This document shows, one piece after another, positions 12,395 through 54,999 of a stretch of DNA of 64,000 nt. The position numbers were made by a program, and so were the translations under genes. This DNA is from a virus: IMG/VR virus record IMGVR_UViG_3300045988_071280, one strand, 5' to 3'. The notes under the pieces are model-generated. The model was not told the origin of the DNA, did not search any database, and saw nothing but the letters and a program-made list of their open reading frames with translations. Each line of letters begins with the position of its first letter. Within the stretch, counting starts at the first letter, position 1.

Positions 12395-12967
12395 TTAGGA
12401 TTTAAATTTGTTAGATATATATGTATTTACCTCATCTATTCTATTTAACCATCCTTTTAAAAATTTACTTTGAGAAGGTTTTCTATCTACTATTGATTGA
12501 TAATATTCTTTTCTTTGGGAAATAAATTCTTGAAGCAGATTTTTAGAATTGCATAAATTCGCTAATCTAATTGTAGTTGGTCCAATTTTCCCATCTATAT
12601 CTAAGGATTGTCCTAAATTTGAAATAGCTTTTTGAAGGCATTTAACACCATTAGAAACACCAGCATTAACGGAATGGTCTAATAGATGGGCTGAGATATA
12701 AATGTTGCTTATATCATCTATTTTACATTTATCATAAAAATTATCTTTATAGAATTGTTCTACTAAATCTTCTAATTCTTTAACTGTTGTTATAATCTGT
12801 CCTCTTTTTAATGGTTTAAATTTATCAATAATCCTCCATCCTTCCCATTTAGGGAAATTAGCACGGGATATTCCACAATATGTCTCCTTCCCGGAGTCGT
12901 CGGGGTCAAATACATAACCTCCCTCGTTTTTTAGGATCATTGATATAAGAATGTGGGATTTATTCAT
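12395..12967 (-). CDS. GH108-family lysozyme (muramidase) with C-terminal PG_binding_3-like domain
   Basis: The N-terminal segment LKNEGGYVFDPDDSGKETYCGIS matches the GH108 signature (EGG-Y-x-D-x-D-x-G-x-T-x-x-GI). The 190-aa size and the C-terminal half are typical of GH108 plus a peptidoglycan-binding module. Confidence 0.75.
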   Translation of the reverse strand: MNKSHILISMILKNEGGYVFDPDDSGKETYCGISRANFPKWEGWRIIDKFKPLKRGQIITTVKELEDLVEQFYKDNFYDKCKIDDISNIYISAHLLDHSVNAGVSNGVKCLQKAISNLGQSLDIDGKIGPTTIRLANLCNSKNLLQEFISQRKEYYQSIVDRKPSQSKFLKGWLNRIDEVNTYISNKFKS

Positions 12968-12988
12968 TTAAATATATATTTATTAATA

Positions 12989-13660
12989 TTATTTAGTCTT
13001 TACATATTCCGGATCATTATTATCCTGAATTTTCATGTATTTAAATACAGACTTACCTAATCTCTTATATGCGGAATCTGTTTTTAATTTCTCTGCTTTT
13101 TTAGCTTGGCGAATTAAGACTCTAGTATTCTTCCTAGAAAATATTCTCTCTCCACCTTTTATTTTATACTGTACTTTACCGTTAGTAGAAAGTATCTCCA
13201 ATAAATCTTCTAAATCATCAATATCATTCTCTATCTTGTCTTTAGGAGATTCATCCTCTAAATCTTCTAAATAATCTAATTTTTCTTCAAGTACTTCATC
13301 TAATCCCTCAAACTCTACACTTTCTCCAGATCGAATTCCGGAATTATTAGATACCTCTAATACGAATAATACATTCTTTTCAGATATAATACTTGTATCA
13401 TTAGGTTTCCCTTCTTTATTAGATATTACTTTAAATTCTGGAGAGATGAAGATTATATCTAAATATAAAGGAGTATCTTTCATCCAATAATTTACTTCTT
13501 CTTGTACTTCTGGATATATAAATAGAAGCCCTTGATTTTTAGATAAACTTTCTATATGCATAAATCCATGTTCTCTTTCCCAGTCATCTATAGCAGTATC
13601 ACAGAGGTATTCTTTATTATGTACTTTAACTTTTACAATTGATTTTTTTAATTCTGACAT
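12989..13660 (-). CDS. DUF192-domain protein with acidic/basic C-terminal extension
   Basis: The pattern EREHGFMH...QGLLFIYPE...NYWMKDTPLYLDIIFIS...FVLEV...G...GESVEF follows the DUF192 (COG1430) consensus. Confidence 0.65.
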   Translation of the reverse strand: MSELKKSIVKVKVHNKEYLCDTAIDDWEREHGFMHIESLSKNQGLLFIYPEVQEEVNYWMKDTPLYLDIIFISPEFKVISNKEGKPNDTSIISEKNVLFVLEVSNNSGIRSGESVEFEGLDEVLEEKLDYLEDLEDESPKDKIENDIDDLEDLLEILSTNGKVQYKIKGGERIFSRKNTRVLIRQAKKAEKLKTDSAYKRLGKSVFKYMKIQDNNDPEYVKTK

Positions 13661-13669
13661 AATTATATA

Positions 13670-14482
13670 TTATTTAAAATAAGGATCCTCATCATCAGCA
13701 TAATAATTCTTCATGTTATCTCTTAACAAATAAGATCCTACTTTGGGATTAAATTTAATATCTTCTCTAATTTCCAAGGATTTTTCTCTTTTAGGAATAG
13801 TGTATTTTCCTGTAACTATAGAAGGAAAGTCGTATGTATCATTTACTTTGATAGTATTATTATCCTTATCCCATTGAATGGTAAAATTCCCGAAAAGATC
13901 TAATCCTGTTGCAAAATGCTGATTCTTATCCGGACGTTCTATATATTTAACAGTTAATCCTTCATTAACTACTTTCGGCTCTCCAGATTCTAGTACCTCT
14001 TTTCCAGTTCTATATATTTTTTCTAATCTAGATTTACTAGGTAATTCTGGAAATTTTTCTATATATTTATCATAATTACGTAGAATTTTACCTACATTTA
14101 AGGTATCTACCATAGATTGTACTCTACGGGCTACAGGTTGTGGGATTCCTACATATTCAGTATTTTTAGGATCTTTATCTTTGTCAGCATTTATCCTAGC
14201 TTTGGAAGATTTTATTAATCTCGAATCCTTTCCTAAATTTAAATAATGTTTAAAGAAAGCCTCTTCAATAGGAGTTGCTAATTCCCTTTCTTCTCGGATT
14301 GGAACTGGAGTATTAGTATAATTTAAATATGGAAGACGTATGTAATAAGGAGCACTCCAATAACCATCAGCTGGATTGAGAAAATTATATACTCTCTCTG
14401 CTTGAGTTTGTTTTATATTACTTTTTCCTCCATTCTGATACTTTTGTATTAAATAAGAATTTACTCTATTTAAATTTAACAT
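13670..14482 (-). CDS. virion protein, 270 aa
   Basis: ORF in the structural operon. Its N-terminal leader ends in QKYQNGG. Confidence 0.5.
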   Translation of the reverse strand: MLNLNRVNSYLIQKYQNGGKSNIKQTQAERVYNFLNPADGYWSAPYYIRLPYLNYTNTPVPIREERELATPIEEAFFKHYLNLGKDSRLIKSSKARINADKDKDPKNTEYVGIPQPVARRVQSMVDTLNVGKILRNYDKYIEKFPELPSKSRLEKIYRTGKEVLESGEPKVVNEGLTVKYIERPDKNQHFATGLDLFGNFTIQWDKDNNTIKVNDTYDFPSIVTGKYTIPKREKSLEIREDIKFNPKVGSYLLRDNMKNYYADDEDPYFK

Positions 14483-26866: not shown

Positions 26867-28009
26867 TTAAGCGGTTACAGTTACATTAACAGTTAATACT
26901 GTATCTGATCCTTTTTTATAAGTTACAGCTACAGCAGAATCTGTAGTAGCTTTACCTGTAATTTCTATTCCTTTAACAGTTACTTTATTAGTATCAGCAG
27001 AAGCTACAGTATTATATTCAGAAAGCTTAATATCTACATATTTCGTCTCTCCTACTTTTAATGTCATAGTTTGAGTAGCTGACCCTCCAGCTTCATTATC
27101 AGAAGCAACTTCGATATCATCCACAACTACTCCAGCAGCTTTTACAGCAGTTTCAAAATTGTCTGAGATAGTAGTATTAATCCAGAAAACAGCTTTAGTA
27201 ATAGATACTAATTTTTCACCTACAGCACCCATACCAGTATGATCTCTTTCACATTCATAATCAAATACATATTGATTATAAGAAGCTCCCGGTACAATCT
27301 TAGAATCATCATTATCCTGATTAAAGATACCAGTTCTGAGACTAGTCTGGATCTGTACATTTTTCAACATAGTCCAGTAAGTACCAACACCTTCTTTAGC
27401 AATTTGAGTATGGCTACCAGTTAAGATAGTTCTGTATACTGGTTCTTTAGGATAATAATTACCTAAAGCAGCAGTACTAAAATCTTCTAATTTCTGTACT
27501 TCTAGTACATTAAATAACTGGAACTCATTAGCAGAAGTTACAGTAATTTTAGCACCATCAAGATCAGCTTTAAACCGAAGATTGTTATAGAAATTACCTT
27601 GTTTATTTATAATTTCAGCTAATTTTAAAGCAATATTAGCAGCAGTATCGGTATTAACTACATCTAAATTAGCATAAAACATTCTCCGACGCCTATCATC
27701 CATAGTTTCAGCAAAATATGAATCAGCAGATCCGGAAAGCTGCATACCAATAGCTAATCTAATATGATTTATTACACCAGCAGTTGTGGGTTTAACAGCA
27801 TCAGTAATAGTAATTTCAGATACAGATACCTGAGGATTTGAAGCTGATGTCTTATATATCTTCCCACCTTTAATATTTGCAGTTTTATAATCTCCTACAC
27901 GAAGAACCCTAAAACCTTGTTCACCACTTATCTGATTATCGAACTTATTAAGTCCACTAAGCGAATCTTTCGCACTATTAATAATTACTTCATTTACAAA
28001 TTCAAACAT
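26867..28009 (-). CDS. abundant-type structural protein with C-terminal bacterial Ig-like (Big_2-like) domain, 380 aa
   Basis: The C-terminal ~70 aa (TLKVGETKYVDIKL...VTVKGIEITGKATTDSAVAVTYKKGSDTVLTVNVTVTA) has an Ig-like beta pattern. A strong terminator follows the gene. Confidence 0.55.
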   Translation of the reverse strand: MFEFVNEVIINSAKDSLSGLNKFDNQISGEQGFRVLRVGDYKTANIKGGKIYKTSASNPQVSVSEITITDAVKPTTAGVINHIRLAIGMQLSGSADSYFAETMDDRRRRMFYANLDVVNTDTAANIALKLAEIINKQGNFYNNLRFKADLDGAKITVTSANEFQLFNVLEVQKLEDFSTAALGNYYPKEPVYRTILTGSHTQIAKEGVGTYWTMLKNVQIQTSLRTGIFNQDNDDSKIVPGASYNQYVFDYECERDHTGMGAVGEKLVSITKAVFWINTTISDNFETAVKAAGVVVDDIEVASDNEAGGSATQTMTLKVGETKYVDIKLSEYNTVASADTNKVTVKGIEITGKATTDSAVAVTYKKGSDTVLTVNVTVTA

Positions 28010-28020
28010 GTTTTTAAATT

Positions 28021-28755
28021 TTATTTGTTAGGGGAAATTGGTGGAGCTATTGTTTGATTAACTATAGGATTAGTATTTAATCTAGGATCTCTATGTCTCT
28101 CTAAAAATAATTTCACCATAATATTTATTATCTCATAACATACATATTTAGGAAACTCTAAATCCTCCAGAATATCATCTTCGCTCTCTAAATCATTTGG
28201 AGTTAGGATTAATTCATTTGGATATTTAATATAATCTATAGATATATCTGAAATACTTATATCTTTATTATCTCCATAAAACAATTTCATAACAACAGGA
28301 GTTCCGGTTTTAATTTGTCCGGAATCATCGTTATATATATAATAATAAGGTGTTTTATATGAAGGTTTAAAATAATAATTATTTAATATTCCAGGATATT
28401 TATCAGATGTTAATCTTCTCGCTCCCTTTTTAATTACTGAATTAGAATCACATTTAGAATTAGGATTATTAAATGTAATTACACAATTTTTAAGATGAAA
28501 ATAATCGCTAGGTAGAGTAAATAATATCTTATCTCCTTTATCTATTATACTTCCTCCAGATAAAGTTGCTGTCATATTTAATACTCTAAGATCATCATCC
28601 TCTTGTTGATTCATATCACAAAAGTTATATTTAGTATTTATATACTGAATAACACTTTTATAATAATAATAATTAAACTCGTCTAAGAGCATACTGGGAG
28701 CTTTTTGTTTTTCTAATTCTATAAGTACTGCTTGATAGACTTGTTTTAAATTCAT
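28021..28755 (-). CDS. structural protein, 244 aa
   Basis: ORF in the capsid-proximal operon. No motif recognised. Confidence 0.45.
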   Translation of the reverse strand: MNLKQVYQAVLIELEKQKAPSMLLDEFNYYYYKSVIQYINTKYNFCDMNQQEDDDLRVLNMTATLSGGSIIDKGDKILFTLPSDYFHLKNCVITFNNPNSKCDSNSVIKKGARRLTSDKYPGILNNYYFKPSYKTPYYYIYNDDSGQIKTGTPVVMKLFYGDNKDISISDISIDYIKYPNELILTPNDLESEDDILEDLEFPKYVCYEIINIMVKLFLERHRDPRLNTNPIVNQTIAPPISPNK

Positions 28756-28763
28756 ATTATGTA

Positions 28764-29774
28764 TTATTTACTAGCTTTACTAGTAGGTTTACTTTTATTT
28801 TCTAATGAAGTTTTTTCAGCATCTTCTAAATCTTTTAATATTTCAGAATCGGATTTAGAATCATCCAAAAAACTTTGTGTTGAAGATACTTCATTCCGCG
28901 CTTTTAAATCCTCAATTCTTTTATTATCCTCAGAAATAGCTTCTATAATTACATCTTTATCTTTTACAGAGATTTCTTGAATCTCTCTTAAAATCCTATC
29001 AGTAATAAGTTTGTTCTTAGGATTCTTCATAAAATCAATACAAGAATCTGCATCTCTACCTATAATATCGTTATCATTATAAGTATATAATCCAGCTTTC
29101 TGTCTCAAAATACCTTTTTGCTTAGCATATGTAAATGCAATTAGATATTTAGTATCATTACTTTCAAATAAAGAAATAATCTTATCAGCATCTTTCTTAG
29201 CAATTTCTGTTAAGAATTCTTCTATTTCCTCATCATAAGCATCTTTTATATATTTACCTAAAAGCATTGCTCTAATTCTTAAAGCATCTCTTGAGGCGTT
29301 GTAGATATAATTTAATGCTTTATTTAATTTCCTTGAGGCCGTATTACGTTTCTTAGTATCCTCAATAATGCGTTCTACATAATAAACTGCTTGAGGTCCG
29401 ATTTTCTCCTCTGGTCCTACTAACATTTTACCACTTTCATCAAATTTCCCTCTATTATCAAAAATAAGATCAGAGAATTTAATAGCTTCCCATTGTTTTG
29501 CTTTTATAGGATTACTCAAATCAAATTCATCTCCATCTTTAATAAAGAATCTATCAGTAGTACGAACGAAGTAATCCAAAGGATTATCATCCTTACCTAA
29601 GATAATATTTCCGGATGAATCTACATTTCTAACACAAGAAGGATATTCTCTTGTTAATGGATTTTTAACTGGGGAAATTGACATCCCAGCATGATTAGGA
29701 CCAAAACGGCTACGTAAATGTATTACCGTATCTAATTCTTCTTTTAAAGCAGTTACACTTATACTCATATTCAT
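28764..29774 (-). CDS. structural protein with acidic C-terminal tail, 336 aa
   Basis: First ORF after the terminator that follows the capsid gene. No motif recognised. Confidence 0.45.
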   Translation of the reverse strand: MNMSISVTALKEELDTVIHLRSRFGPNHAGMSISPVKNPLTREYPSCVRNVDSSGNIILGKDDNPLDYFVRTTDRFFIKDGDEFDLSNPIKAKQWEAIKFSDLIFDNRGKFDESGKMLVGPEEKIGPQAVYYVERIIEDTKKRNTASRKLNKALNYIYNASRDALRIRAMLLGKYIKDAYDEEIEEFLTEIAKKDADKIISLFESNDTKYLIAFTYAKQKGILRQKAGLYTYNDNDIIGRDADSCIDFMKNPKNKLITDRILREIQEISVKDKDVIIEAISEDNKRIEDLKARNEVSSTQSFLDDSKSDSEILKDLEDAEKTSLENKSKPTSKASK

Positions 29775-29792
29775 TGATCATTAAATGTTTAA

Positions 29793-29824
29793 ATTTAAAA
29801 TAAAGAGGGTTGTTAGCCCTCTTT
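29793..29824 (-). terminator. rho-independent terminator after the last capsid-gene exon
   Basis: On the minus strand, AAGAGGG-CTAACAA-CCCTCTT is followed by TATTTT. It starts 8 nt after the exon 5 stop codon (29834-29832). Confidence 0.7.
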
Positions 29825-29831
29825 ATATTTA

Positions 29832-29967
29832 TTATAGCGGATTCTGTCTAAAGATAACAGAACGATAGGGTGCGTATACTGATACCCCACTATAACCCCA
29901 GTAAATCATACGACTGCCAGCTACAGGAGTACTTGCAGTTCCGCCTGAGATACCATCTAATCCCCCA
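29832..29967 (-). CDS. major capsid protein (putative), exon 5 of 5
   Basis: Not in the ORF track. After the omega-G at 29968, the minus strand reads T GGG GGA TTA ... CCG CTA TAA, which encodes GGLDGISGGTASTPVAGSRMIYWGYSGVSVYAPYRSVIFRQNPL*. The leading T completes the GT left open by exon 4. Confidence 0.75.
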
Positions 29968-30275
29968 CGTATTTTTCTTATATTTTCATATAAGCCAGAC
30001 TATATCATTAACTTATATTCTATTACCGTCTATAAGTTACCTCCCGTTTCCATATTTAACAATATGTACTCTACTCATTTATTCTCTAATATATTTCTTA
30101 TTAGATATATTTTCGATAGTCGTTGAACTTTGAATAAATATTTAAATAATATTTAAGCCTTAGCTGCTGATTAACATGTAGTAATTAATATGGACAATAC
30201 TATTTAGCCTTCCAGCAATTAGAGAGGTTTAATTTTTCTACATATCACTATGTAGCGGCGCTAGAGGAGTAGTTA
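29968..30275 (-). mobile_element. group I intron (P/Q/R/S family), ORF-less, 308 nt
   Basis: Minus-strand core elements: P AATTGCTGG (30212-30220), Q AATCAGCAGC (30163-30172), R GTTCAACGACTA (30117-30128), S GATATAGTC (29998-30006). P1 pairs exon GGCGU with AGCGCC and carries a U.G. A P2 hairpin CTACAT/ATGTAG follows. The omega-G is at 29968. Confidence 0.8.
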
Positions 30276-30760
30276 ACGCCAATTACATCAGTTTTTATCA
30301 TATCACAGCCTTTGAATGTCCAAGATTCAATAGCTGGTTTTCCGTTAGCTAAATCCGGAGTAAGATCTAGAATAAATCCAAATGCTTGATCAGGATATTC
30401 TATATTTAAAGCCTTATCCGGCATAAAGGTTATCGTATTACCTTGATATTCATAGCTAACAAAAGTATTACCTACTTTAATACCATCAACCGTTTCACCT
30501 ACTTTCTTCTTAACACCAGAAGATTTACTATACATCAAAGTAGCAGTAGGAGTCCATTTTCCAATTTCATCCATTAAGTTATCACCAACCTGATTCCAAA
30601 GTAAAGAGTTACAGATTAATACATAATCATTGCCAGTTAAATTCTTTGCCTTAGAGGTTAAGAAACTTAATGCTTCTTTGAAGTGTGAAGTAAGTAATTG
30701 ATCGAAAGAGATTAAGTATGCGTATCTTTCTATTTGAGGAATAATTCCATCGCCTATATA
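30276..30760 (-). CDS. major capsid protein (putative), exon 4 of 5
   Basis: Corresponds to track ORF 30248-30763, which needs a GTG pseudo-start. The exon is 485 nt, starts in phase 0 (YIGDGIIPQ...) and ends ...KTDVIGV with GT open. The ORF tail YSSSAAT* is read-through into the intron. Confidence 0.75.
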
Positions 30761-32127
30761 CACTATTTATACTTTATATTACTATAAAGATTAGACTATA
30801 TCTTTAACTTATCATTAATTTAAATACTTAAATAAATATCCTTTACAAGTTTTTCCTCTTCCTTTTAAAACTCTTCCACAACCTGGATATTGCTTACTAC
30901 ATTCTCCTACAGTTTTAAAAGTTTCTAATAATTCTCCATCTAAAGAATATCTTCCGACCATTCTTCCGGTATGAAGATACTTAGAAGATTCTTTATTTGG
31001 CATGGCTGGAATTTTTTCTATACTCCATTGATAACCTTGCCAAGTTCTATTTAATTTAATTGCACTACTAATACCCTTTTTTCCTAAAGCTCTTTCAGCT
31101 TCTGCAAAAGAACTATATTCATTTAAATATTCCCCAGAAAGGGAATATTGATATACAGGAGTATTTTTTAATTGCTTACATTTAGCTCTAGAATAATTAC
31201 CTTCTAATTCGTAAGATACATATTTATTATTTATCAAATATCCAGCTTTTATTGCTCTAATAACATTTCCTGTTGCAGAATTTAATTCTTTAGCAGCATC
31301 AGTTATAGATTGATAAAATTTTTCATAATTTCCATCTTTATCATATTGATAAACAGGAATTTTATGTTGATCAATAATAAAGTCTTTTGGATTTACTGAT
31401 TTAAATTTTTCAGTTGTCCATAGATATTTAGCACAAGGATGTTTTGTCATTATAGCAATACTTAATGTTGTATAATATCTATCTACAGCTCTTGAAGCAT
31501 CTGCAATAGATTTATATTCATTTATATATTCTCCTTCTAAAGAATATTGATATACAGCTTTAGCATTTACTCCTCTATCTCCCCCATTTCCTCCTAAAGC
31601 AGTGTTATACACATCCTTTCTTTTTAAAAATTCTTCATTAACAATAATTGATTCTAAATAATAAGCATCTTCTTCATTATCAAAAACTTGGATAGTTTTT
31701 CTAATAAAGGCTTTTACTCCATATTTATTAACAGCAGCTTGAAATACTGTTTTACTGAATTTATATGTAGAAGGTTGATTTATAACAACCCCACATCCTA
31801 AATACCCATCAAAAATATCTGGATTTTCGGTTTGATGTACTCCCACATATATTTTTTTATTAATTGTGTTAGTAGTTAGATATACTATATATTTCATATT
31901 TAAATTTTTATAAGTTAATTCCCATTTCCAGATAAAATCTGTACTCCTTGCGGATAGTCGTTGAACGTTCCTTTTGCGTTACTCAAAGAGCCTACTTATC
32001 AAAAGGCTTCGCTGCTGATTGTCTTTAAGTAGCAGATTAAAGATATTCCAGCAATTAAAGAATTTAATTTATCATACTGTTTCCAGTATGCGACCCATGT
32101 TTAACATAGACGTTTGTTAAAAGTCCC
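30761..32127 (-). mobile_element. group I intron (P/Q/R/S family) carrying a GIY-YIG homing endonuclease gene, 1367 nt
   Basis: Core elements: P 32048-32056, Q 32011-32020, R 31955-31966, S 30794-30802. P1 pairs exon GACCU with GGGUC. P2 is CATACTG-GAAA-CAGTATG. The ORF sits between R and S, i.e. in a P8-type position. Confidence 0.8.
30815..31897 (-). CDS. GIY-YIG homing endonuclease with four NUMOD/IENR1-like repeats, 360 aa
   Basis: The N-terminus MKYIVYLTTN...KIYVGVHQT...YLGCG...AVNKYG...FDNEEDAYYLE follows the GIY-(10-11)-YIG pattern. Four ~45-aa repeats of the type VYQYSLxGEYxNEY...A follow. The ORF lies wholly inside the intron. Confidence 0.85.
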   Translation of the reverse strand: MKYIVYLTTNTINKKIYVGVHQTENPDIFDGYLGCGVVINQPSTYKFSKTVFQAAVNKYGVKAFIRKTIQVFDNEEDAYYLESIIVNEEFLKRKDVYNTALGGNGGDRGVNAKAVYQYSLEGEYINEYKSIADASRAVDRYYTTLSIAIMTKHPCAKYLWTTEKFKSVNPKDFIIDQHKIPVYQYDKDGNYEKFYQSITDAAKELNSATGNVIRAIKAGYLINNKYVSYELEGNYSRAKCKQLKNTPVYQYSLSGEYLNEYSSFAEAERALGKKGISSAIKLNRTWQGYQWSIEKIPAMPNKESSKYLHTGRMVGRYSLDGELLETFKTVGECSKQYPGCGRVLKGRGKTCKGYLFKYLN

Positions 32128-32408
32128 AGGTCTCTGCGTTTGCGGGTCCACGATTGTAGCTTTCCCGTTGGCATCCACGTTACTGCGTGCCCAAAGATCG
32201 TGTTTAGCTTTAACTTCTAAGAAATTCTCAATAAGAGTCTTTTCCATTGAAGTCATAGTAAACAATTTTTCACTTCCTTTAGTTTCCGTATCACTAATTT
32301 TCAAGAATACATCTTCATTAGCTAAATAAGCTTGAGATGCATCAATATCATTTCTATGTAAAGTCAAGTAATTACGATGAACCTCCATATTAGATTGATA
32401 TTTTGTAG
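32128..32408 (-). CDS. major capsid protein (putative), exon 3 of 5
   Basis: Corresponds to track ORF 32101-32388. The exon is 281 nt, CT + 93 codons, encoding (S)TKYQSNMEVHRNY...DPQTQRP. The ORF tail GTFNKRLC* is intron read-through. Confidence 0.75.
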
Positions 32409-32639
32409 CGTTAGTACTTTATATCACTATAAAGATTAGACTATATCTTAATCTTATTATATAAGATCTTCTCTGCTTCGGAATTAAATATTCCTACTCC
32501 ATATTGGATAGTCGTTGAACGTTCTATATTGTATTTAAATACTCATATAGCTTCGCTGCTGATTGTCTTTAAATAAGATGTTCCAGCAATTCAGAGAATG
32601 TTTCAATATTTATTACTAAATAAAGGGGCCTACAATTTA
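32409..32639 (-). mobile_element. group I intron (P/Q/R/S family), ORF-less, 231 nt
   Basis: Core elements: P 32583-32591, Q 32555-32564, R 32509-32520, S 32439-32447. P1 pairs exon GGGU with GCCC. P2 is TATTTA-GTAA-TAAATA. The omega-G is at 32409. Confidence 0.8.
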
Positions 32640-32929
32640 ACCCAAAGTCGTGATAATCAAACGGATGAGCATTTGATAAGAAGTGAGTAGTCATACCCGG
32701 CTGACATGCGGAAGTATCCAAATATGACTGATAATCATTATCAATCAATCGAACAGTATATTCATAGAATTTATTACTCCTCCAAATTGGACGAGAAGTA
32801 ACATAACACTGTTGATGTGATTTATCTATTACAAAAATATCATGTTTATCATAGTATTTTTCCTTAAACAGCATCTTAATTTCTGTCCCTCCAATTCCAT
32901 CACCTTCGGGAACAGCGTAAAAAGGAATA
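32640..32929 (-). CDS. major capsid protein (putative), exon 2 of 5
   Basis: Corresponds to track ORF 32569-32874, and the frame stays open 18 codons further upstream. The exon is 290 nt: 1 + 96 codons + 1, encoding IPFYAVPEGDGIGGTEIKMLFKEK...HPFDYHDFG. Confidence 0.7.
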
Positions 32930-34223
32930 CGTTTAATGAACTATTCTATTTAAAGAATTTAGACTATATCATTTACTTATTTATGATATTTAAAGATATA
33001 ATCCTTATAATATTTATCACCCATCTGAATATTTTTTAATTTACTAGATGGGATATTGTATTTTTCTCTTACATCTTTTATACTATCTAAAGTCTCTATA
33101 TAATTTCCAAATGTATCATATATATCAATCGTTATTCCTTTAGAATAATATTTATCCGGAATATTTATTACTTCTGTGGTTGATATATAATAATCCTTAT
33201 ACCATCCATTATTATATAATATCACATTCTTAATTTTATTCCAAGAATGGAGCTTTATAACCTTCATCACCATCTTACCCTTAAATTGTCCTATATAAAC
33301 TCCATCTTTATTATATACATGATATATTAAATTCTTATAATTTGCTCTAGTTTTTGGAATAAATTCATCAACCAATTTATTAGATATATAATACTTATCT
33401 AATACCAAAGATTGATTTTTAATAGCTTTATTTATATCTAAATCTCCAAGATATTTAATACATTCATCCTTATCTAAGAACTCATTTAATAATTTCCCTT
33501 TTTTAGTATATAAATAAATAGTATTATTTAATTTATTTAAAGAATATTTAATAACATCTATCTCCGGTTCTAATGACCAATAGGAATTAAGAAATTTAGA
33601 TTTATTACTTATCGCGAATTGAAATTTTTTAGGAGATTCTCCATAAAAATCATATGCTTCTAAGGAATAATTCCATTTCTTCTCTAATTCTCCAGTTGTA
33701 TTAAATTGATATAAAGGAGATATGTTATTTACACTAGAACAATAATTATACGTATGATCGGAATTTAAAAAAGTATCATTAACTAATTCTAATTCCTTTT
33801 CATATGCCTCTTCTGGAGTATTAAATATATATAATATAGTCCTCTCAAAAGCCTTCGTCCCATATTTTTTAACAGCATATTGGAACGGAGTTTTTGGATA
33901 CATAAAAGTACTTGGTTGATTTATATAAACTCCAGATCCTAAATACCCATCAAAAATATCCGGATTTTCGGTTTGATGTATTCCGATATAAATTTTATTT
34001 AATTCTCCAACTTTAGATTTTAAATTTTTAGTAAGATATACAATATATTTCATAAGTAATTCAGTTTTTCAATCTTATTTATAAGATTTACAGGTTTCCC
34101 TTAGTCGTTGAACACTACTTTCATCAAAGTCATGCTGCTGATTGTCTCTAGTAGCAGTAAAGATTCCCAGCAATTTAAAGAATTTATTGTGAACCTCATT
34201 GATTCACATCCACGTCCCACTCA
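32930..34223 (-). mobile_element. group I intron (P/Q/R/S family) carrying a GIY-YIG homing endonuclease gene, ~1294 nt
   Basis: Core elements: P 34167-34175, Q 34134-34143, R 34102-34113, S 32962-32970. The omega-G is at 32930. The 5' splice site is ambiguous: 34224 (P1 CUAU/GUGG) and 34230 are both phase-compatible. Confidence 0.75.
32977..34053 (-). CDS. GIY-YIG homing endonuclease, 358 aa (paralog of 30815-31897)
   Basis: The N-terminal ~95 aa are clearly homologous to the other intron ORF (MKYIVYLTKN...IYIGIHQTENPDIFDGYLGSGV...AVKKYGTKAF). The C-terminal DNA-binding part has diverged. Confidence 0.85.
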   Translation of the reverse strand: MKYIVYLTKNLKSKVGELNKIYIGIHQTENPDIFDGYLGSGVYINQPSTFMYPKTPFQYAVKKYGTKAFERTILYIFNTPEEAYEKELELVNDTFLNSDHTYNYCSSVNNISPLYQFNTTGELEKKWNYSLEAYDFYGESPKKFQFAISNKSKFLNSYWSLEPEIDVIKYSLNKLNNTIYLYTKKGKLLNEFLDKDECIKYLGDLDINKAIKNQSLVLDKYYISNKLVDEFIPKTRANYKNLIYHVYNKDGVYIGQFKGKMVMKVIKLHSWNKIKNVILYNNGWYKDYYISTTEVINIPDKYYSKGITIDIYDTFGNYIETLDSIKDVREKYNIPSSKLKNIQMGDKYYKDYIFKYHK

Positions 34224-34441
34224 ATAGCAAAAGCATCAATACTCTTACGTCCGGGCTTAGGAATATCTTGATAAACCATATTTTCAATTCTCTCAGTTAA
34301 AGCTGATACAGTATGTCCGGGACATAAAGATGCAGCTAAACCTACTCTATGAGTAATTCGTCCCAAGAATTGGGAGAAATCATGAAAAGTTCTTGAGCCA
34401 TTCATATTGGCTCGATTTGAAATGTATTCTGCTACAAACAT
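34224..34441 (-). CDS. major capsid protein (putative), exon 1 of 5
   Basis: Corresponds to track ORF 34196-34441. The ATG lies 18 nt after the scaffold-like gene. The exon ends in phase 2. The boundary is uncertain by 6 nt. Confidence 0.65.
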
Positions 34442-34459
34442 TTTAAATTAAATTTAGAT

Positions 34460-35527
34460 CTAATCCTTTAGGTTAAGAAAACTTTTTAAATCTGAATTTT
34501 CTGTTTTATTATCTTTACCTGTTGATAGATTAGATGTGTTATTACTACGTTTTTTATTTTTAAGTTTATTTAATTTCTCTAGTCTATTCTTTAGGTACTC
34601 TTCATCGTTAAGTACATTATTATAATGTTCATGGATAGCTTCAATTAGTTCATCTCCATGAGTAGCATAAAATGCTAATTTAAATAATGTATCTGGATTA
34701 TCTAAATCACTTGCAAGTTTTGTCCTTCCCGTAATCTGGGGTTTAGTTATATAATCCATTGTACTATCTATATCTGATTCTTCAAGGTCAAAACCTCCAA
34801 TAGTCTTAATATTTTTTCCAGCCTCTCTAAGAGTACCTATTATCTTATTTAATTCTTCCTCAGATAACTGAGAATCTTGTTCTTCTTTCTGTTTAGCTTC
34901 GGCAGCTAATCTTTCTTCTTCTGCTTTATATATCTCACGTAATTTATTAACCTTTTTCTCAAAAGATTCAGAATTTTCTTTAGCTTTATTTACTTCATCA
35001 ACTAATTCATCTTCTGTTAAAATATCTCCGTAATTATTTTTCATATATAAAGCATATATATCCTCATCTGATAATTCATCTACCTTATAAACGGCTCCTT
35101 CATTTGCTAAATATTCCTCAATTCCTTTCTGTTTGTAATAATTTACTAAAGATTCAGAGTTAAGGTTATTTTCACGCATAAATGTAAGAAGATTTATCTC
35201 ATCGTCGTCTAGGTTATAATCATCTTCTTCTAAATTAAGAAGTTCTATTTGTTCTTCTCTACTTAACTCAGTAAATGGGACACTGTGAATTACTCCAGTT
35301 TCAGTATCCTCTATTTTTATATTATTAAAATCTATTCCTCTAGATTTAAGAACAGACTCTAATAAAGATTGTTCGTCTATAACAAGAGAAGTATTCTCCT
35401 TTGTATTAACTTCCTCTTGGGAAGTATCTTTTTTATCATCCACATTCTCCTCAGATGATTTTTGAGGAGTAGATTCTTCGTCTAATGAGTTGAAGATATC
35501 TAAATCATTTTCATATTCCATATACAA
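34460..35527 (-). CDS. scaffolding-like protein, 355 aa
   Basis: Very acidic, E/D/K-rich and coiled-coil-like (AEEERLAAEAKQKEEQ). It lies immediately upstream of the capsid gene. Confidence 0.55.
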   Translation of the reverse strand: MYMEYENDLDIFNSLDEESTPQKSSEENVDDKKDTSQEEVNTKENTSLVIDEQSLLESVLKSRGIDFNNIKIEDTETGVIHSVPFTELSREEQIELLNLEEDDYNLDDDEINLLTFMRENNLNSESLVNYYKQKGIEEYLANEGAVYKVDELSDEDIYALYMKNNYGDILTEDELVDEVNKAKENSESFEKKVNKLREIYKAEEERLAAEAKQKEEQDSQLSEEELNKIIGTLREAGKNIKTIGGFDLEESDIDSTMDYITKPQITGRTKLASDLDNPDTLFKLAFYATHGDELIEAIHEHYNNVLNDEEYLKNRLEKLNKLKNKKRSNNTSNLSTGKDNKTENSDLKSFLNLKD

Positions 35528-35533
35528 TATTTA

Positions 35534-35824
35534 TTACAGAAGTTCTATATATTCCCCAAACTCTGCTAAAGACTTCTTTCTAATATTAAAAGGAGTAGAG
35601 GAAATAGTTTCTTTAAGAGAATTTTTATATTTATCATCTAATTCAAATGATTCTGATTCTACATTCTCTTCTAAAATTTTCATAATCTCTAAATCTCTTT
35701 TAATTGTAGATAAAGTTAAAGCTTTTTGGCTCGGAACTTCATAACAAAATAACATCAAACTTACATAATTAGCTGGACGTTGTGCATCCACTTTAATGTC
35801 AATAGGCTTATTTTCAATAATCAT
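35534..35824 (-). CDS. hypothetical protein, 96 aa
   Basis: ORF at the head of the scaffold-capsid operon, preceded by a promoter-like motif. Confidence 0.45.
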   Translation of the reverse strand: MIIENKPIDIKVDAQRPANYVSLMLFCYEVPSQKALTLSTIKRDLEIMKILEENVESESFELDDKYKNSLKETISSTPFNIRKKSLAEFGEYIELL

Positions 35825-35852
35825 AGTTCATTAATTTTTAGTTATTCATCCA

Positions 35853-35860
35853 CAAAAGTA
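35853..35860 (-). promoter_or_regulatory. Bacteroidota-type -7 promoter element (TAnnTTTG)
   Basis: The minus strand reads TACTTTTG about 29 nt upstream of the ATG at 35824, in a 75-nt intergenic gap. Confidence 0.35.
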
Positions 35861-35899
35861 GATAATATTTGTATGTAATACAATAAATAAATAAAAATT

Positions 35900-36517
35900 T
35901 TATTTTTTAATTTTATACGATTGTATCTTTATCTTATCTTTAAAACAATCAGATGTTGCAGTAATTTTACTAATATAATGATTCCGGAATCCTATTATAT
36001 TATATCCAAATTCTTTTCTTTTCTTAAAATTATACCAATATATAATATCTCTATAGTCTATTATAGTTATATTTATATCAAAATCTAAAGAATCTATAGT
36101 AAGATACAATTTCTCATTATTAATTTCTAGAGTTTCATGTAATGTAATACAATCAATAGATTTAATTATCGGAATACAAGTGTCTTTTATTATTTCAATA
36201 TTATTTAATATAGTATCTCTAATTACTTTAGTTGTGTTTATATTAGCTTTAATTACATTGTCTAATTGTTTAATTTTTAAATCTTTTTTCTCTAATTCCG
36301 ATTTAAGTAAAGAATCCTTTGATAAAATTATTCTTTTAAATTGTTTCTCTGTTACGATATGTACTTGTTGAAGAGAATCTATTGTACATAATTCTGAGGT
36401 ATGAATATCTTTTAAATCTCTAATTTCTCTAGATTGTTTATCTACCAGTTTTATTAAATATATTAAGGATATGATAAAGATTCCTAATGTAATATATTTA
36501 ATTAGTATTGTTTTCAT
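35900..36517 (-). CDS. N-terminally membrane-anchored protein (spanin/lysis-accessory-like), 205 aa
   Basis: It has an N-terminal TM helix (LIKYITLGIFIISLIYLIKL) followed by a coiled region. It overlaps the holin-like ORF by 20 nt. Confidence 0.4.
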   Translation of the reverse strand: MKTILIKYITLGIFIISLIYLIKLVDKQSREIRDLKDIHTSELCTIDSLQQVHIVTEKQFKRIILSKDSLLKSELEKKDLKIKQLDNVIKANINTTKVIRDTILNNIEIIKDTCIPIIKSIDCITLHETLEINNEKLYLTIDSLDFDINITIIDYRDIIYWYNFKKRKEFGYNIIGFRNHYISKITATSDCFKDKIKIQSYKIKK

Positions 36518-36752
36518 TATTATTAGATTTATTTATATTCTTTCTCCATATAGATGTAATAGTGTCAGCTCCTAATAGAGTAGTACTACATATGAAGAGC
36601 ATATCTACTATTTCTGGGGATTCTATCACTTTTATTGTGCACCATACACATATAAATAAACAAACTACCCACCCAAAAAATCCACATACTCTCTTAGAAC
36701 TTAATCCAGAATGAGCTGTGAACATCTTAATAAAGAAATTATTACAGTTCAT
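36498..36752 (-). CDS. holin-like small membrane protein, 84 aa
   Basis: Two hydrophobic helices (VCGFFGWVVCLFICVWCTI and IVDMLFICSTTLLGA) are followed by a charged, polar C-terminal tail. Confidence 0.45.
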   Translation of the reverse strand: MNCNNFFIKMFTAHSGLSSKRVCGFFGWVVCLFICVWCTIKVIESPEIVDMLFICSTTLLGADTITSIWRKNINKSNNNENNTN

Positions 36753-36753
36753 C

Positions 36754-36897
36754 TTATTTATTTAATAAAGTATTTAATTTAGATAGTATAAGAGTTAATA
36801 ATTCATTATTCTCTTTTACATAATCTAATATACATAGTATTTGTTGGGATTGAGGACATTTATCACATCCTTTACATTCCCTTAAAGAATCTTCCAT
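36754..36897 (-). CDS. possible small Cys-containing protein, 47 aa
   Basis: Unlisted ORF MEDSLRECKGCDKCPQSQQILCILDYVKENNELLTLILSKLNTLLNK*. It fills the gap exactly, and its stop lies 1 nt before the next ATG. Confidence 0.3.
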   Translation of the reverse strand: MEDSLRECKGCDKCPQSQQILCILDYVKENNELLTLILSKLNTLLNK

Positions 36898-36901
36898 ATT
36901 A

Positions 36902-37672
36902 TTAAGCGTCTATTGTTAAATATTCTATAACCATTCTAGGATTATTATAATCTATATTAACTTGTATACCTCCAATTTGTAGTCCAGTAGAATCTAATGG
37001 AATAGCATTAACATTTCCAAAATCCCATAAAAGTACTCTTATACTATTTGATTCATTGATATGATATAACTTATTATTTATATATTCTATTGTGAAAATA
37101 TTAGCTTCTCCCATATTTCCTCCATATATTATAGGATGATTAATTGGATCAGCATTTCCATTAACGTCTTGTACTACTATTTTAATTGTTGAGTTAGTAG
37201 TATCTGTACTTCTTAATATACTTAAATACTTTTTATCATTAGTATCTGATACTAAAAGAGTTAATAAACAATTATAAGAATTTTCAGAACTTCCAATAGC
37301 AGTAATAGTATATCTAAAAGAAACTCTCCAATTATTTTTTCGATTCTCGAATAGATTAGCTATTAATATAGATGAATAATCTTTCATAAACATAGCTCCA
37401 TAACTATTATGCTGAATTAATCCTAATTCTTGAATAAATGAAGTAACAGAAGATGTAGTTGTATTAGATACTCCATCATATAAAAAAATCTGAGATAATA
37501 TTTTAATTATATCATTATCTGCTGGAAAATCATATAAACTATAACTACTAAGTGGAGTAGGATCGGCTCCAGAAAGAATAGCTCCATCTTTATGTATAAA
37601 ATTCATATTTGTACTACTAGGAGATCCTAATCTATTAGCAGCATCTTTAAGAGTTAAAAAATCCTTACTCAT
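36902..37672 (-). CDS. receptor-binding-like tail protein, 256 aa
   Basis: The N-terminal ~60 aa (MSKDFLTLKDAANRLG...ADPTPLSSY) are homologous to the N-terminus of 39125-40180. The C-terminal part is unrelated. Confidence 0.5.
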   Translation of the reverse strand: MSKDFLTLKDAANRLGSPSSTNMNFIHKDGAILSGADPTPLSSYSLYDFPADNDIIKILSQIFLYDGVSNTTTSSVTSFIQELGLIQHNSYGAMFMKDYSSILIANLFENRKNNWRVSFRYTITAIGSSENSYNCLLTLLVSDTNDKKYLSILRSTDTTNSTIKIVVQDVNGNADPINHPIIYGGNMGEANIFTIEYINNKLYHINESNSIRVLLWDFGNVNAIPLDSTGLQIGGIQVNIDYNNPRMVIEYLTIDA

Positions 37673-53171: not shown

Positions 53172-53971
53172 TACTTTCTACAATTACAAGAACTAAATCC
53201 AGTAGAGTATTTAAGGTAATCATTATTACAAAATCCTCCACAAACCTGAATCTCTTCTATAATTCTCTCGGCTTCATAATAACTACATTTATCTATTAAT
53301 CTATGGATTAATTCTAAAGCTATAAATACCATATTCCTATCTCTAAATACTTGAGAAATATTATTATCATTTTTTATATTACATCTAGTATATAATTTAT
53401 TATAATAGATATATTTTAATTTATTCTCGTAACAATATTCTAAATTCCCTAAAAGAAATGTCTCTTCCTCAATCCCTATTATATTAGAATTAGACTGATT
53501 ATTATATAAATCCATTATAGATATCTTCTTTTCAGTATAACTTCCGGATATAATAGTTATTTCATAAATCTCTACTTCTCCATTTGAAAGTTCTTTCGCG
53601 GAATAGAATATTTCTCCTTCCATATTTAAACTAGATGGAGATACTCCATGAACCCATTCGTAATTAGGTAACGCTAAATGATCTATTATATGCCATCCGT
53701 CTATTTTAGTAGAATAGTTTAATTTATAATCAGTATATTCCTGATCTGAATGACATACATAATAAAAATCTGATACTTTAGGATCATCTATAGTATTTAG
53801 AGTAATTAAATCAATAAATACAATATCTTTTGTTCTTAAATAATTAGCGGATATCTGAGATACTTCTGGATAGATACTACTAGTACTTATACCAGTAGTA
53901 TCCTTTAATGTAAATCCAGATATTCCGTATTCAGTTAATGAAATACTTAAATTTAATGAAATATTTTTCAT
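53171..53971 (-). CDS. hypothetical structural-module protein, 266 aa
   Basis: ORF whose start overlaps the portal stop by 4 nt and whose stop overlaps the next start by 1 nt. Confidence 0.45.
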   Translation of the reverse strand: MKNISLNLSISLTEYGISGFTLKDTTGISTSSIYPEVSQISANYLRTKDIVFIDLITLNTIDDPKVSDFYYVCHSDQEYTDYKLNYSTKIDGWHIIDHLALPNYEWVHGVSPSSLNMEGEIFYSAKELSNGEVEIYEITIISGSYTEKKISIMDLYNNQSNSNIIGIEEETFLLGNLEYCYENKLKYIYYNKLYTRCNIKNDNNISQVFRDRNMVFIALELIHRLIDKCSYYEAERIIEEIQVCGGFCNNDYLKYSTGFSSCNCRK

Positions 53972-54999
53972 TTTCCAAAATTTACTTCGTTATTTCTAGG
54001 ATTATTATCAAATAATTGTGCCCATTCAATATTAGCTTTCTTTTCTTCGATCTTATTCCTCTCTTTATCATTCTCATCTTTAGATTTAGCAGTAAACCAT
54101 TTAATAGAGGAATCTTGTTCTTTTTGTTTTAGATTTTCTACTTCTTTAATAGATTTTTGCAATTCCTCTTGAAGTTGCTGTATCTGTTGTTGAGCTTCTT
54201 TAAGAGCTTGATCATATTGCTGTATTTGTTGTTGAGCTTGTTGTATTTGATTATTCTCCTCTTTTTGACGTTTAATTGCATCTAATGTTATTTGTTTATA
54301 TTCTGTGATACTCTTACATCCAATAGCTTGTACTAATACATCAGCTGTTAATTGTCCTGATTTAATTAACTCAAGATTATATGCTTTTATAGTTTCTAAG
54401 TCTTGTAGAGCGGATTGAGTATCAGCAATATTTATATCAAAGTCTGTTACTGTATAATGTTCTGGAAGTGCTGTGAAAATAGCTTTTTGTTTCTCTCCAA
54501 GAATTATAGTTCCTTGAAATCCATCTTTATATACTACTTTAGCTATATTTAAACTATCTAAGAATAATTCTCTTAAAGCTAATGCCATGTTAGAGAAGTA
54601 TATTTTTGTGACAATTAGTGATTGATTAATTCCGGTTCTAACATTAGTAACAGCATCTCTGGTTTCAACTCCTCCAATAGCTTCTCTAAATGCTCCTGTT
54701 ATATTAGATGCAAGTTGCTCTATTTTTTCTATAGCTAGATCTAGAGCTTGCATGGATTGGTAGGATAAACTCATATCATATGTATTAAATACAGCATTTG
54801 GCATAGATTGTCCAGCCTCACTTTGGGAAGTATCTAATGCTGCGAATCCTTGTTTTACATACGCCATGAATTTAAGTAATCTGTTTGTTTCATCTTCCTC
54901 GTCTAAGAATGTGGGGATTTTAGAGAAATCTACTGCAATACCTTTTGTTCCACTTACTGCAATGGCATTATTTCGAAGGAAAAATAGTATATTATACAT
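53968..54999 (-). CDS. portal protein (putative), exon 2 of 2
   Basis: Corresponds to track ORF 53968-55002. An in-frame TAA lies directly upstream of the ATG ATG, so this cannot be a plain continuation of exon 1. The exon starts after the omega-G at 55000 (or at 54997). The C-terminus is a Q-rich coiled coil. Confidence 0.65.
   Translation of the reverse strand: MYNILFFLRNNAIAVSGTKGIAVDFSKIPTFLDEEDETNRLLKFMAYVKQGFAALDTSQSEAGQSMPNAVFNTYDMSLSYQSMQALDLAIEKIEQLASNITGAFREAIGGVETRDAVTNVRTGINQSLIVTKIYFSNMALALRELFLDSLNIAKVVYKDGFQGTIILGEKQKAIFTALPEHYTVTDFDINIADTQSALQDLETIKAYNLELIKSGQLTADVLVQAIGCKSITEYKQITLDAIKRQKEENNQIQQAQQQIQQYDQALKEAQQQIQQLQEELQKSIKEVENLKQKEQDSSIKWFTAKSKDENDKERNKIEEKKANIEWAQLFDNNPRNNEVNFGK

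Follow-up and report, generated by a model that had tools for sequence, protein, structure and literature searches.

Introduction

Group I introns of phages are known classically from T4 td, nrdB and nrdD (sunY) and from ORF142 of Staphylococcus phage Twort, a phage in which three introns interrupt one gene. They are subgroup IA-like, with extra helices between P7 and P3′, a U.G pair at the 5′ splice site and a terminal G. Introns of this type carry GIY-YIG endonucleases (I-TevI type, with a NUMOD-like DNA-binding part) in a peripheral loop, which is P6 or P9.1 in T4, and are inserted at highly conserved codons. Their host genes belong mostly to nucleotide metabolism or have no assigned function, and are not capsid genes. 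Here we analyze a 64,000-nucleotide (nt) stretch of viral DNA (IMG/VR record IMGVR_UViG_3300045988_071280, hereafter the window), in which one major capsid gene, at 29832-34441 on the minus strand, is interrupted by four group I introns and so consists of five exons.

The introns of the window resemble those of T4 and Twort in their apparently subgroup IA-like structure, the U.G pair, the endonuclease open reading frame (ORF) in a peripheral loop and the conserved insertion codons. Unlike in T4, the ORFs are located in P8 and the host gene encodes a capsid protein, and introns are denser than in T4 and Twort, as 1.45 kb of coding sequence contains four of them, and that of relatives up to seven.

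The closest described systems are crAss-like phages. In the study of Yutin et al. (2021, Nat Commun 12:1044, PMC7886860), many group I introns and inteins are described for the Delta group and especially for the Zeta group, and a 2023 review of Crassvirales restates this density (PMC10136315). The major capsid protein (MCP) ORF of the metagenome-assembled genome (cMAG) OLRF01000054 is given there as five fragments; of the four segments between them, three contain intron-type endonuclease domains (PMC7886860). The gene, the kind of phage and the five-fragment architecture are the same as in the window, which is another instance of an architecture already published; because just two of its four introns carry ORFs, against three of the four segments in OLRF01000054, it represents a different allele or genome. 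The window shares with Zeta-group phages a crAss-type capsid and ring proteins, and the contigs of its relatives, which come from gut samples, are 80-186 kb long. The crAss-type capsid, the contigs of up to ~186 kb and a TAG-recoding relative fit the Zeta group, to which the phage may belong.

As far as the relevant portions of PMC7886860 go, introns were found through protein domains, and ribozyme structures, exact junctions and guide sequences are not given, nor are a non-canonical junction 3, an 18-nt mini-exon or seven introns in one gene. What is added here is junctions exact to the nucleotide, the guide sequences, an insertion-site map and the anomalous junction 3. These are of value for annotation, as gene callers break such capsid genes into pieces that are listed as if unrelated (for example, database entries P0002-P0006 and P0121-P0128), and the junctions, guide sequences and map would permit automatic reconstruction of such genes. 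The remaining scientific interest is in the possible exception at junction 3 and in the extreme packing of introns in relatives.

One capsid gene in five exons

A previous reading of the window, made from its letters and a list of its ORFs (the sequence-only reading), had proposed one gene with five exons and four group I introns. The four minus-strand fragments from which it started (34196-34441, 32569-32874, 32101-32388 and 30248-30763) are present in the ORF listing for 27000-37000, as is its terminal 45-codon piece in the DNA, and two further ORFs of ~360 amino acids (aa) were listed within the long spacers. A search of a large protein database returned P0001, an uninterrupted homolog of 482 aa whose identity to the product as revised below is 74%, counted over the full length; proteins closer to that product were also found, but they are partial. 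When P0001 was aligned to the window by tblastn, residues 1-80, 81-180, 182-274, 275-437 and 438-479 mapped to 34441-34202, 32940-32641, 32406-32128, 30763-30275 and 29966-29841, respectively, and the tiling left out split codons only. This collinear tiling onto an intron-less homolog, together with the covariance-model matches given below, upholds the proposal (Table 1). The phage is a crAss-like (Crassvirales-type) gut phage, and for the overall explanation, that its MCP gene contains four self-splicing, subgroup IA-like group I introns, we estimate a probability of about 0.93.

The insertion codons (N80-F81, G180/S181, P274-V275 and V437/G438) are highly conserved, and the exons contain no in-frame stop under the standard code. 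Because junction 1 is moved from the site drawn in the sequence-only reading, the exons now total 1443 or 1446 nt, with junction phases 0, 1, 0 and 2 and a product of 480 aa, or 481 aa when the GUG at 30763 is retained, in place of 1410 nt, 469 aa and phases 2, 1, 0 and 2. The earlier spliced model reads open over 469 codons; as its wrong junction 1 kept the frame too, a match of phases alone is weak evidence. A terminator had been placed 8 nt after the gene, and a terminator-like hairpin is indeed found after it, starting five bases past the stop codon.

In searches of GenBank phages, megablast of the region gave no close record, only a 38-nt match, and tblastn gave two gut-phage records that encode the homolog as one piece. 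For comparison of introns, exon blocks were mapped in contigs encoding partial homologs and in 22 close relatives from IMG/VR.

Table 1. Exons, introns, intron ORFs and downstream hairpin of the capsid gene, in order of transcription.
Feature	Position	Strand	Description
Exon 1	34202..34441	-	240 nt, codons 1-80; ends ...GAU GUG AAU
Intron 1, group I	32941..34201	-	1261 nt; RF00028 33.7 bits, core motifs and guide sequence
Intron 1 ORF	32977..34053	-	358 aa; putative GIY-YIG-like homing endonuclease; phrog_314
Exon 2	32640..32940	-	301 nt; begins UUC AUU AAA CGU (FIKR), ends ...UUU GGG U
Intron 2, group I	32409..32639	-	231 nt, without ORF; RF00028 full-length
Exon 3	32128..32408	-	281 nt; ends ...CAG AGA CCU (QRP)
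Intron 3, group I	30764..32127	-	1364 nt as drawn; RF00028 partial matches; 3′ boundary ambiguous
Intron 3 ORF	30815..31897	-	360 aa; GIY-YIG-like N-terminus and NUMOD1 repeats; phrog_314, NUMOD1
Exon 4	30276..30763	-	488 nt from GUG 30763 (most likely Val275), 485 nt from 30760; ends ...AUU GGC GU
Intron 4, group I	29968..30275	-	308 nt, without ORF; RF00028 full-length
Exon 5	29832..29967	-	136 nt including stop codon TAA 29834-29832
Intrinsic-terminator-like hairpin	29800..29826	-	10-pair stem, then T run; 3′ of the capsid gene

Identity of the gene product

The sequence-only reading called the product a capsid protein from the position and size of the gene. Its spliced model matches Pfam Crass_capsid (PF23898) with 43.8 bits against a curated cutoff of 27, in a single match of residues 84-367 that runs across exons 2-4, and it also matches the major head protein family phrog_11589. 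The revised product has 237 database homologs, of which 120 were listed; for most of these 120, a match to PF23898 had been precomputed. The proposed comparison with HK97-fold proteins was run on P0001 as a proxy: an AlphaFold (AF2) model was built from a 49-sequence alignment (predicted local distance difference test, pLDDT, 72.4; predicted template modeling score, pTM, 0.63) and searched against the PDB with Foldseek. The top matches were structures of the phicrAss001 capsid (7QOI, 7QOH and 7QOF), with E values of 1e-21 to 1e-19 and a template modeling (TM) score of ~0.53 over ~475 columns, and the next were the capsid of Vibrio phage VP1 and many HK97-fold capsids. A capsid profile search of PDB sequences gave no match. 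Downstream genes of the relatives carry CrAss_Ring_1 and CrAss_Ring_2 domains.

Because of the Crass_capsid match and the fold match to phicrAss001, the assignment goes beyond gene position, and the early identification has proved right: the gene product is a Crassvirales-type HK97-fold MCP. It resembles the phicrAss001 MCP in its fold over nearly the full length, as judged from P0001, and in its size of ~480 aa, and differs in sequence, P0001 being only 12-14% identical to that protein. To our knowledge, no introns have been reported in the phicrAss001 MCP gene.

Group I ribozyme cores

Scanning the whole window with Rfam at gathering thresholds, which for RF00028 is a curated score of 50 bits, gave exactly two matches, both to the full-length RF00028 model on the minus strand: 87.4 bits (E 6e-21) at 32417-32649, corresponding to intron 2, and 70.0 bits (E 1e-15) at 29977-30285, corresponding to intron 4. 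A permissive scan of 29700-34600 added partial matches in intron 3, of 42.1 bits at 31917-32072 (model 41-158) and, for its 3′ part, 27.7 bits at 30774-30806 (model 219-251), and one in the 5′ half of intron 1, of 33.7 bits at 34041-34240. An ORF-less homolog of the intron 3 type in a relative (L023, 6303-6575) scores 76 bits. The covariance search suggested by the sequence-only reading therefore detects introns 2 and 4 directly and above the cutoff, intron 3 through a homolog and intron 1 in part, the matches of introns 1 and 3 themselves being partial and below the cutoff. Whole-window Rfam scans overlook ORF-carrying introns.

Each spacer contains the four core elements AATTGCTGG, AATCAGCAGC, GTTCAACGACTA and GATATAGTC (P, Q, R and S) once and in the correct order on the minus strand, as had been read from the letters; in intron 1 they are at 34175, 34143, 34113 and 32970. 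Elsewhere in the 64 kb, just one more such set is found (56087-55079). From the RF00028 matches and the occurrence of P, Q, R and S once per spacer, it follows that the four minus-strand group I introns are real, far beyond chance. When 12 ORF-less introns of the window and its relatives were folded together by RNAalifold, P3, P4, P6, P8 and P9 were recovered, and 20 of the 31 predicted pairs are kept through changes on both sides; to judge from their sequences, the introns are maintained ribozymes. In the Rfam alignments, intron 2 has 31 nt and intron 4 has 68 nt inserted exactly between the 5′ strand of P7 and P3′, where subgroup IA introns have their extra helices P7.1/P7.2, and the introns appear to be subgroup IA-like.

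Splice junctions 1, 2 and 4

Guide sequences pairing with both exons could be drawn for these three introns. In intron 1, P1 is formed by GUGAAU (34207-34202) and GUUCAC (34194-34189), with U.G at the splice site, and P10 by UUCAUU (32940-32935) and AAUGAG (34200-34195); the guide sequence is AAUGAGGUUCACA at 34200-34188 and omega-G is 32941. In intron 2, GGGU pairs with GCCC (32629-32626) in P1 and CUACAA (32408-32403) with UUGUAG (32635-32630) in P10, with guide sequence UUGUAGGCCC and omega-G 32409. In intron 4, the corresponding pairs are GGCGU with GCGCC (30261-30257) and UGGGGGA (29967-29961) with UCCUCUA (30268-30262), with guide sequence UCCUCUAGCGCCG and omega-G 29968. The P10 helices, of 6, 6 and 7 bp, directly adjoin P1. 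All revised junctions follow U, and introns 1, 2 and 4 end in G. Of the P1 helices drawn in the sequence-only reading, those of introns 2, 3 and 4 are retained and that of intron 1 is replaced by GUGAAU with GUUCAC; its omega-G at the end of every intron holds for introns 1 (at the revised site), 2 and 4, and depends on the boundary for intron 3.

The strength of this pairing was measured as the longest contiguous span of P1 plus adjacent P10 that the initial 70 nt of the intron can form with the ligated exons, and was compared with 2000 shuffles. For intron 1, the revised junction gives a span of 13 nt, reached in 2 of the 2000 shuffles, against 5 nt (1745 shuffles) for the site of the sequence-only reading and 8 nt (777 shuffles) for its alternative site. 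The junctions of introns 2 and 4 give 10 nt (23 shuffles) and 13 nt (8 shuffles), respectively.

Junction 1 had been placed at 34224 or 34230, joined to 32929, so that intron 1 would occupy 34223-32930. This removes EWDVDVNFIKR, 11 residues conserved in every homolog, and leaves an 11-residue gap against MT835470.1. EWDVDVNQ, which had been taken for read-through, matches EWEVETNY of the homolog, and FIKR is encoded immediately upstream of the former exon 2. With 34202 joined to 32940, no gap is left in the alignment with P0001, P0002 and P0006 (...IEWDVDVNFIKRIPF...), these boundaries are identical in 23 of 23 alleles examined, and the sole variant of the guide sequence among them (A to G) retains the pairing to the 3′ exon. 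The correct junction 1, as predicted from alignment and pairing, is 34202 to 32940, and the spliced RNA would read GAUGUGAAU joined to UUCAUUAAACGU (peptide DVDVNFIK). An exact-pattern scan did not find this spliced sequence in metagenome contigs.

Junctions 2 (32640 to 32408) and 4 (30276 to 29967) had been placed correctly, both being gapless in the alignment to the uninterrupted ORF of MT835470.1. At junction 2 the predicted spliced sequence is CUUUGGGU joined to CUACAAAAUAUC (peptide DFGSTK); relatives L010-L018, which have no intron there, read HDFG-T-TKYQSN, and the spliced window reads HDFG-S-TKYQSN. An alternative with the 5′ site after the second U and the 3′ site after the G at 32417 (G-F-TNA-TKYQ) was rejected, as relatives read G-T-TKYQ and P10 supports 32408. 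At junction 4 the alignment is gapless through GVGGLDG, several relatives read through 437/438, and the predicted spliced sequence is AUUGGCGU joined to UGGGGGAUUAG, with the junction peptide TDVIGVGGLDGISGGTASTPVAGSR.

The anomaly at junction 3

The P1 of intron 3, GACCU with GGGUC (32096-32092), contains the U.G pair and holds only for cleavage after U32128. It is shared with a homologous canonical intron in L003, in which CCU is followed by aaacuu..., the intron ends in ...aaauuG before AUUUAU, and P10 adjoins P1. In the window, the 3′ end of the intron reads ...AUAAAUA-G30763-U-G30761-UAUAUAGG, and the same end is found in nine other contigs. An assembly error was considered and rejected, because ten independent contigs share the boundary.

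The sequence-only reading joined 32128 to 30760, with G30761 as omega-G, giving 480 aa without the Val/Ile of RP(I/V)YIGDG. This is the only choice with U at position -1 and G at omega that is in frame, and a G at omega is expected because intron 3 has exactly the same P7 and G-binding site as the other three introns. Since residue 275 is in a non-helical stretch just before a helix in the P0001 model, its deletion might also be tolerated. Against this, position 275 is occupied in 49 of 49 aligned homologs (I in 41, L in 6, V in 2), none of which has a gap here, and the alignment to MT835470.1 shows a 1-residue gap. The site has no P10; the pairing spans 5 nt, a length reached in 694 of the 2000 shuffles, versus 9 nt (61 shuffles) when exon 4 starts from G30763. 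In the latter case P10 is GUGU (30763-30760) with ACAU (32100-32097), the guide sequence is ACAUGGGUC at 32100-32092, and GACCU-G-UGU of the ligated exons is complementary over 9 nt to ACA(U/C)GGGUC; the U-to-C change in the guide of four relatives (L013, L014, L023 and L024) still pairs with that G. Moreover, the intron-less close relatives L010, L012 and L021 read QRPVYIGDG at the junction, a second, canonical intron type 2 nt downstream (CCUGU before it, CUAUAU after its terminal G) also gives RPVYIGDG, and the tails of related introns after P9 (...AAAUG or ...AAUUG) align better with ...AAAUAG ending at 30763. The junction of the sequence-only reading is therefore probably wrong, and we give the canonical site somewhat less than an even chance; if it is used, the pairing of the guide with GUGU would be a relic of an ancestral junction.

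We lean slightly towards exon 4 starting at G30763, which keeps RPVYIGDG and gives 481 aa across a non-canonical boundary, with a small remainder left to something else. This needs either A30764 at omega or cleavage after G32127 with G30763 as omega-G, and the mRNA is identical in both cases. Some of the ORF fragments look independent only through read-through into intron sequence, as had been suggested, but the GTG at 30763, which had been called a pseudo-start, most likely encodes Val275. Cleavage after U32128 with G30763 as omega-G was rejected, as the frame shifts into a stop two codons later. The mRNAs predicted for the non-canonical, canonical and frameshifted junctions are ...CAGAGACCUGUGUAUAUAGGCGAU (481 aa), ...CAGAGACCUUAUAUAGGCGAU (480 aa) and ...CAGAGACCUUGUAUAUAGG, respectively. 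The first two correspond to ...AGACCU followed by GUGUAUAUAGG (RPVYIGDG) and by UAUAUAGG (RPYIGDG), and would be distinguished by the peptides ATIVDPQTQRPVYIGDGIIPQIER and ...RPYIGDGIIPQIER. Exact-pattern scans of viral and metagenome contigs did not find the spliced junction 3 sequence, and a protein search with a 112-aa peptide across the junction returned exon fragments only.

That the intron 3 type as a whole, in the window and in at least nine contigs with an identical 3′ boundary, splices through a non-canonical boundary to ...GACCU-G-UGUAU... is a claim we make tentatively, as one that may well turn out otherwise. If true, the exons would be ligated after an A where the terminal G is otherwise universally conserved, or the 5′ cut would fall 1 nt past the U.G wobble, following a G that pairs with U or C. 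An mRNA retaining the GUG would then represent a natural exception, in an essential gene, to a near-universal rule of group I splice sites, one of the two that are best conserved.

Intron-encoded ORFs and a proposed model of splicing

The ORFs of introns 1 and 3 share 31% identity along their whole length (E 8e-41), and both match the homing endonuclease family phrog_314 (E 9e-14 and 2.5e-28, respectively). The intron 3 ORF matches Pfam NUMOD1 in three stretches (79 bits), and the intron 1 ORF has no Pfam match above cutoff. Whole-domain alignments to Pfam GIY-YIG were obtained at 16.7 bits for the intron 3 ORF and at 11.2 bits for that of intron 1, the cutoff being 22.6, and to SegE_GIY-YIG at 17.5 bits (intron 3 ORF), the cutoff being 25; the N-termini read KYIVY...IYVG / IYIG. 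In a phmmer search of PDB sequences neither ORF had a meaningful match, the similarity to I-TevI being too weak. Both ORFs follow P3′ and precede the 3′ strand of P7, and are enclosed by a stem read as P8 (UUACUUAU with AUAAGUAA in intron 1, AACUUAU with AUAAGUU in intron 3), and the AUG of the intron 1 ORF overlaps the 5′ strand of this stem.

Splicing is inferred here from sequence, and we propose that it would proceed as follows. The gene would be transcribed as a single pre-mRNA from 34441 to the terminator at 29826-29800. A guide sequence near the 5′ end of each intron would pair with the end of the upstream exon, forming P1, in which a U.G wobble marks the cleavage site, and with the start of the downstream exon, forming P10, and guanosine-initiated transesterification would excise the intron. 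The resulting ORF of 1446 nt (or 1443 nt) would encode an HK97-fold capsid protein of 481 aa (or 480 aa). The paralogous GIY-YIG-like/NUMOD1 endonucleases of introns 1 and 3, if active as their sequences predict, would presumably cut intron-less alleles at co-infection and so drive the spread of the introns, and introns 2 and 4 may have lost such ORFs or never had them.

Alternative explanations

Several points weigh against self-splicing group I introns in this gene. Scans of viral and metagenome contigs did not find the spliced junction sequences that would be evidence of splicing at the RNA level. Introns 1 and 3 are under the Rfam gathering score on their own, because ORFs of ~1.08 kb split them, and the GIY-YIG assignment of those ORFs is under the Pfam cutoffs. 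The fold was tested on a 74%-identical intron-less proxy. Junction 3 is not both canonical and gapless under any choice, and no database protein spans it at high identity. The first of these points, the two large endonuclease ORFs between fragments and the different frames of the fragments would also be expected of a decaying pseudogene that was broken by free-standing homing-endonuclease insertions and whose fragments are not rejoined. Such a gene, however, is hard to reconcile with complete ribozyme cores with compensatory changes, with exons that tile a full-length homolog with no residue missing or extra, and with two of four interruptions that lack an endonuclease ORF; no other capsid-family gene was seen in the region, and over 20 independent contigs, 80-167 kb in length, share the architecture. 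We regard a pseudogene as very improbable.

Inteins, group II introns, programmed frameshifts or recoded stops in place of group I introns are less probable still. Crass-like phages do use inteins and stop-codon reassignment, according to PMC7886860, and the capsid gene of one relative, L002, contains in-frame TAG codons. Inteins and recoding are nevertheless impossible for these spacers, because they contain stops in all frames and the reading frame changes between exons, and the exons themselves are free of in-frame stops. As for group II introns, no such family was matched in the Rfam scans, no reverse-transcriptase maturase was found in the region, and the intron ORFs are endonuclease-like. 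Within the group I explanation, the exact model of the sequence-only reading (34224 to 32929, 32640 to 32408, 32128 to 30760 and 30276 to 29967, with a 469-aa protein) has in its favor that all four junctions are in frame, follow U and end in G, that two of them are correct and that its junction 3 is the only fully canonical in-frame choice. Yet its junction 1 loses 11 conserved residues that the window encodes on either side of the true intron, with P1/P10 pairing at the level of chance, and its junction 3 deletes the residue found in every aligned homolog, so that as a whole it is hardly credible.

Intron variation among relatives

Intron 1 was found in 22 of 22 close relatives. Each of the sites of junctions 2, 3 and 4 holds an intron in only part of the relatives, and where a site is empty the coding sequence runs on through the junction. 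At the intron 2 site, 231 nt in the window compares with 1103 nt, including a 271-aa ORF, in L021; intron 3, of 1364 nt in the window, is ~290 nt in L023, with ends 96% and 94% identical. This pattern is that expected for mobile introns driven by homing endonucleases. Across the relatives, at least seven insertion sites were mapped, after residues 80, 180, 274, 280, ~387, 437 and ~460, and the fragment P0128 hints at an eighth near residue 262.

At gathering thresholds, Rfam gave 18 matches in nine related loci, 17 of them full-length. Six full-length matches above the gathering score occur in one capsid gene (L031 6282-8737, IMGVR_UViG_3300045988_084568), which, counting the ORF-carrying intron 1, therefore has seven introns in ~1.45 kb of coding sequence; L015 and L017 likewise carry more capsid-gene introns than the window. 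At L015 6880-6897, two group I introns are separated by only 18 nt, the mini-exon GUG UAU AUA GGC GAC GGU (VYIGDG), and the same arrangement is found at L027 7125-7142 and around 7102-7117 of L019. As P1 or P10 of each flanking intron must form with the 18-nt exon, the order of folding and splicing comes into question, and where an essential late gene is packed with up to seven introns and an exon as short as 18 nt, it may be asked how splicing matches capsid production.

Different intron types were also observed at nearly the same site with an offset of 1-2 nt. At junction 3, the second intron type (L019, L025, L026 and L028-L030) inserts after CCUGU and not after CCU, and at junction 2, other intron types (L009 and L026-L031) insert after GGU (phase 0) and not after GGG U. 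To go by these offsets, independent invasions of the same conserved target sequences are suggested.

A fifth intron and other observations

A fifth group I intron, which is not in the list of the sequence-only reading and was missed by both whole-window Rfam scans, lies within 55040-56190 on the minus strand and accounts for the additional set of P, Q, R and S motifs, at 56087, 56052, 56016 and 55079. When this region was searched alone, RF00028 matched with 46.1 bits in the 5′ half and 24.2 bits at the 3′ end. The intron contains a 289-aa ORF (55073-55942) without a Pfam match and separates two co-directional ORFs, 56114-57322 and 53968-55002. Because the downstream ORF matches the C-terminal part of P22_portal (26.5 bits, cutoff 26.1), a portal-like gene is probably split as well. 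In the window (1-64000), ARAGORN found no tRNA or suppressor tRNA genes.

The more distant L002 (6001-7425, MT835492.1) has four TAG codons in frame within its capsid gene, which is otherwise free of internal stops, and one of the TAGs aligns with a conserved Gln, in agreement with the reassignment of TAG to Gln that has been described for crAss-like phages. In the relatives L006 (1-114) and L007 (1-72), a gene with a reverse-transcriptase domain (PF00078) is found ~6 kb upstream of the capsid gene; it adjoins a ~1190-aa protein and could be a diversity-generating retroelement. Finally, L007 has a 260-aa NUMOD-type endonuclease ORF (12917-13699) between two CrAss_Ring genes, where the otherwise near-identical L006 has a 54-aa ORF (12908-13072), a difference that looks like another mobile endonuclease polymorphism.

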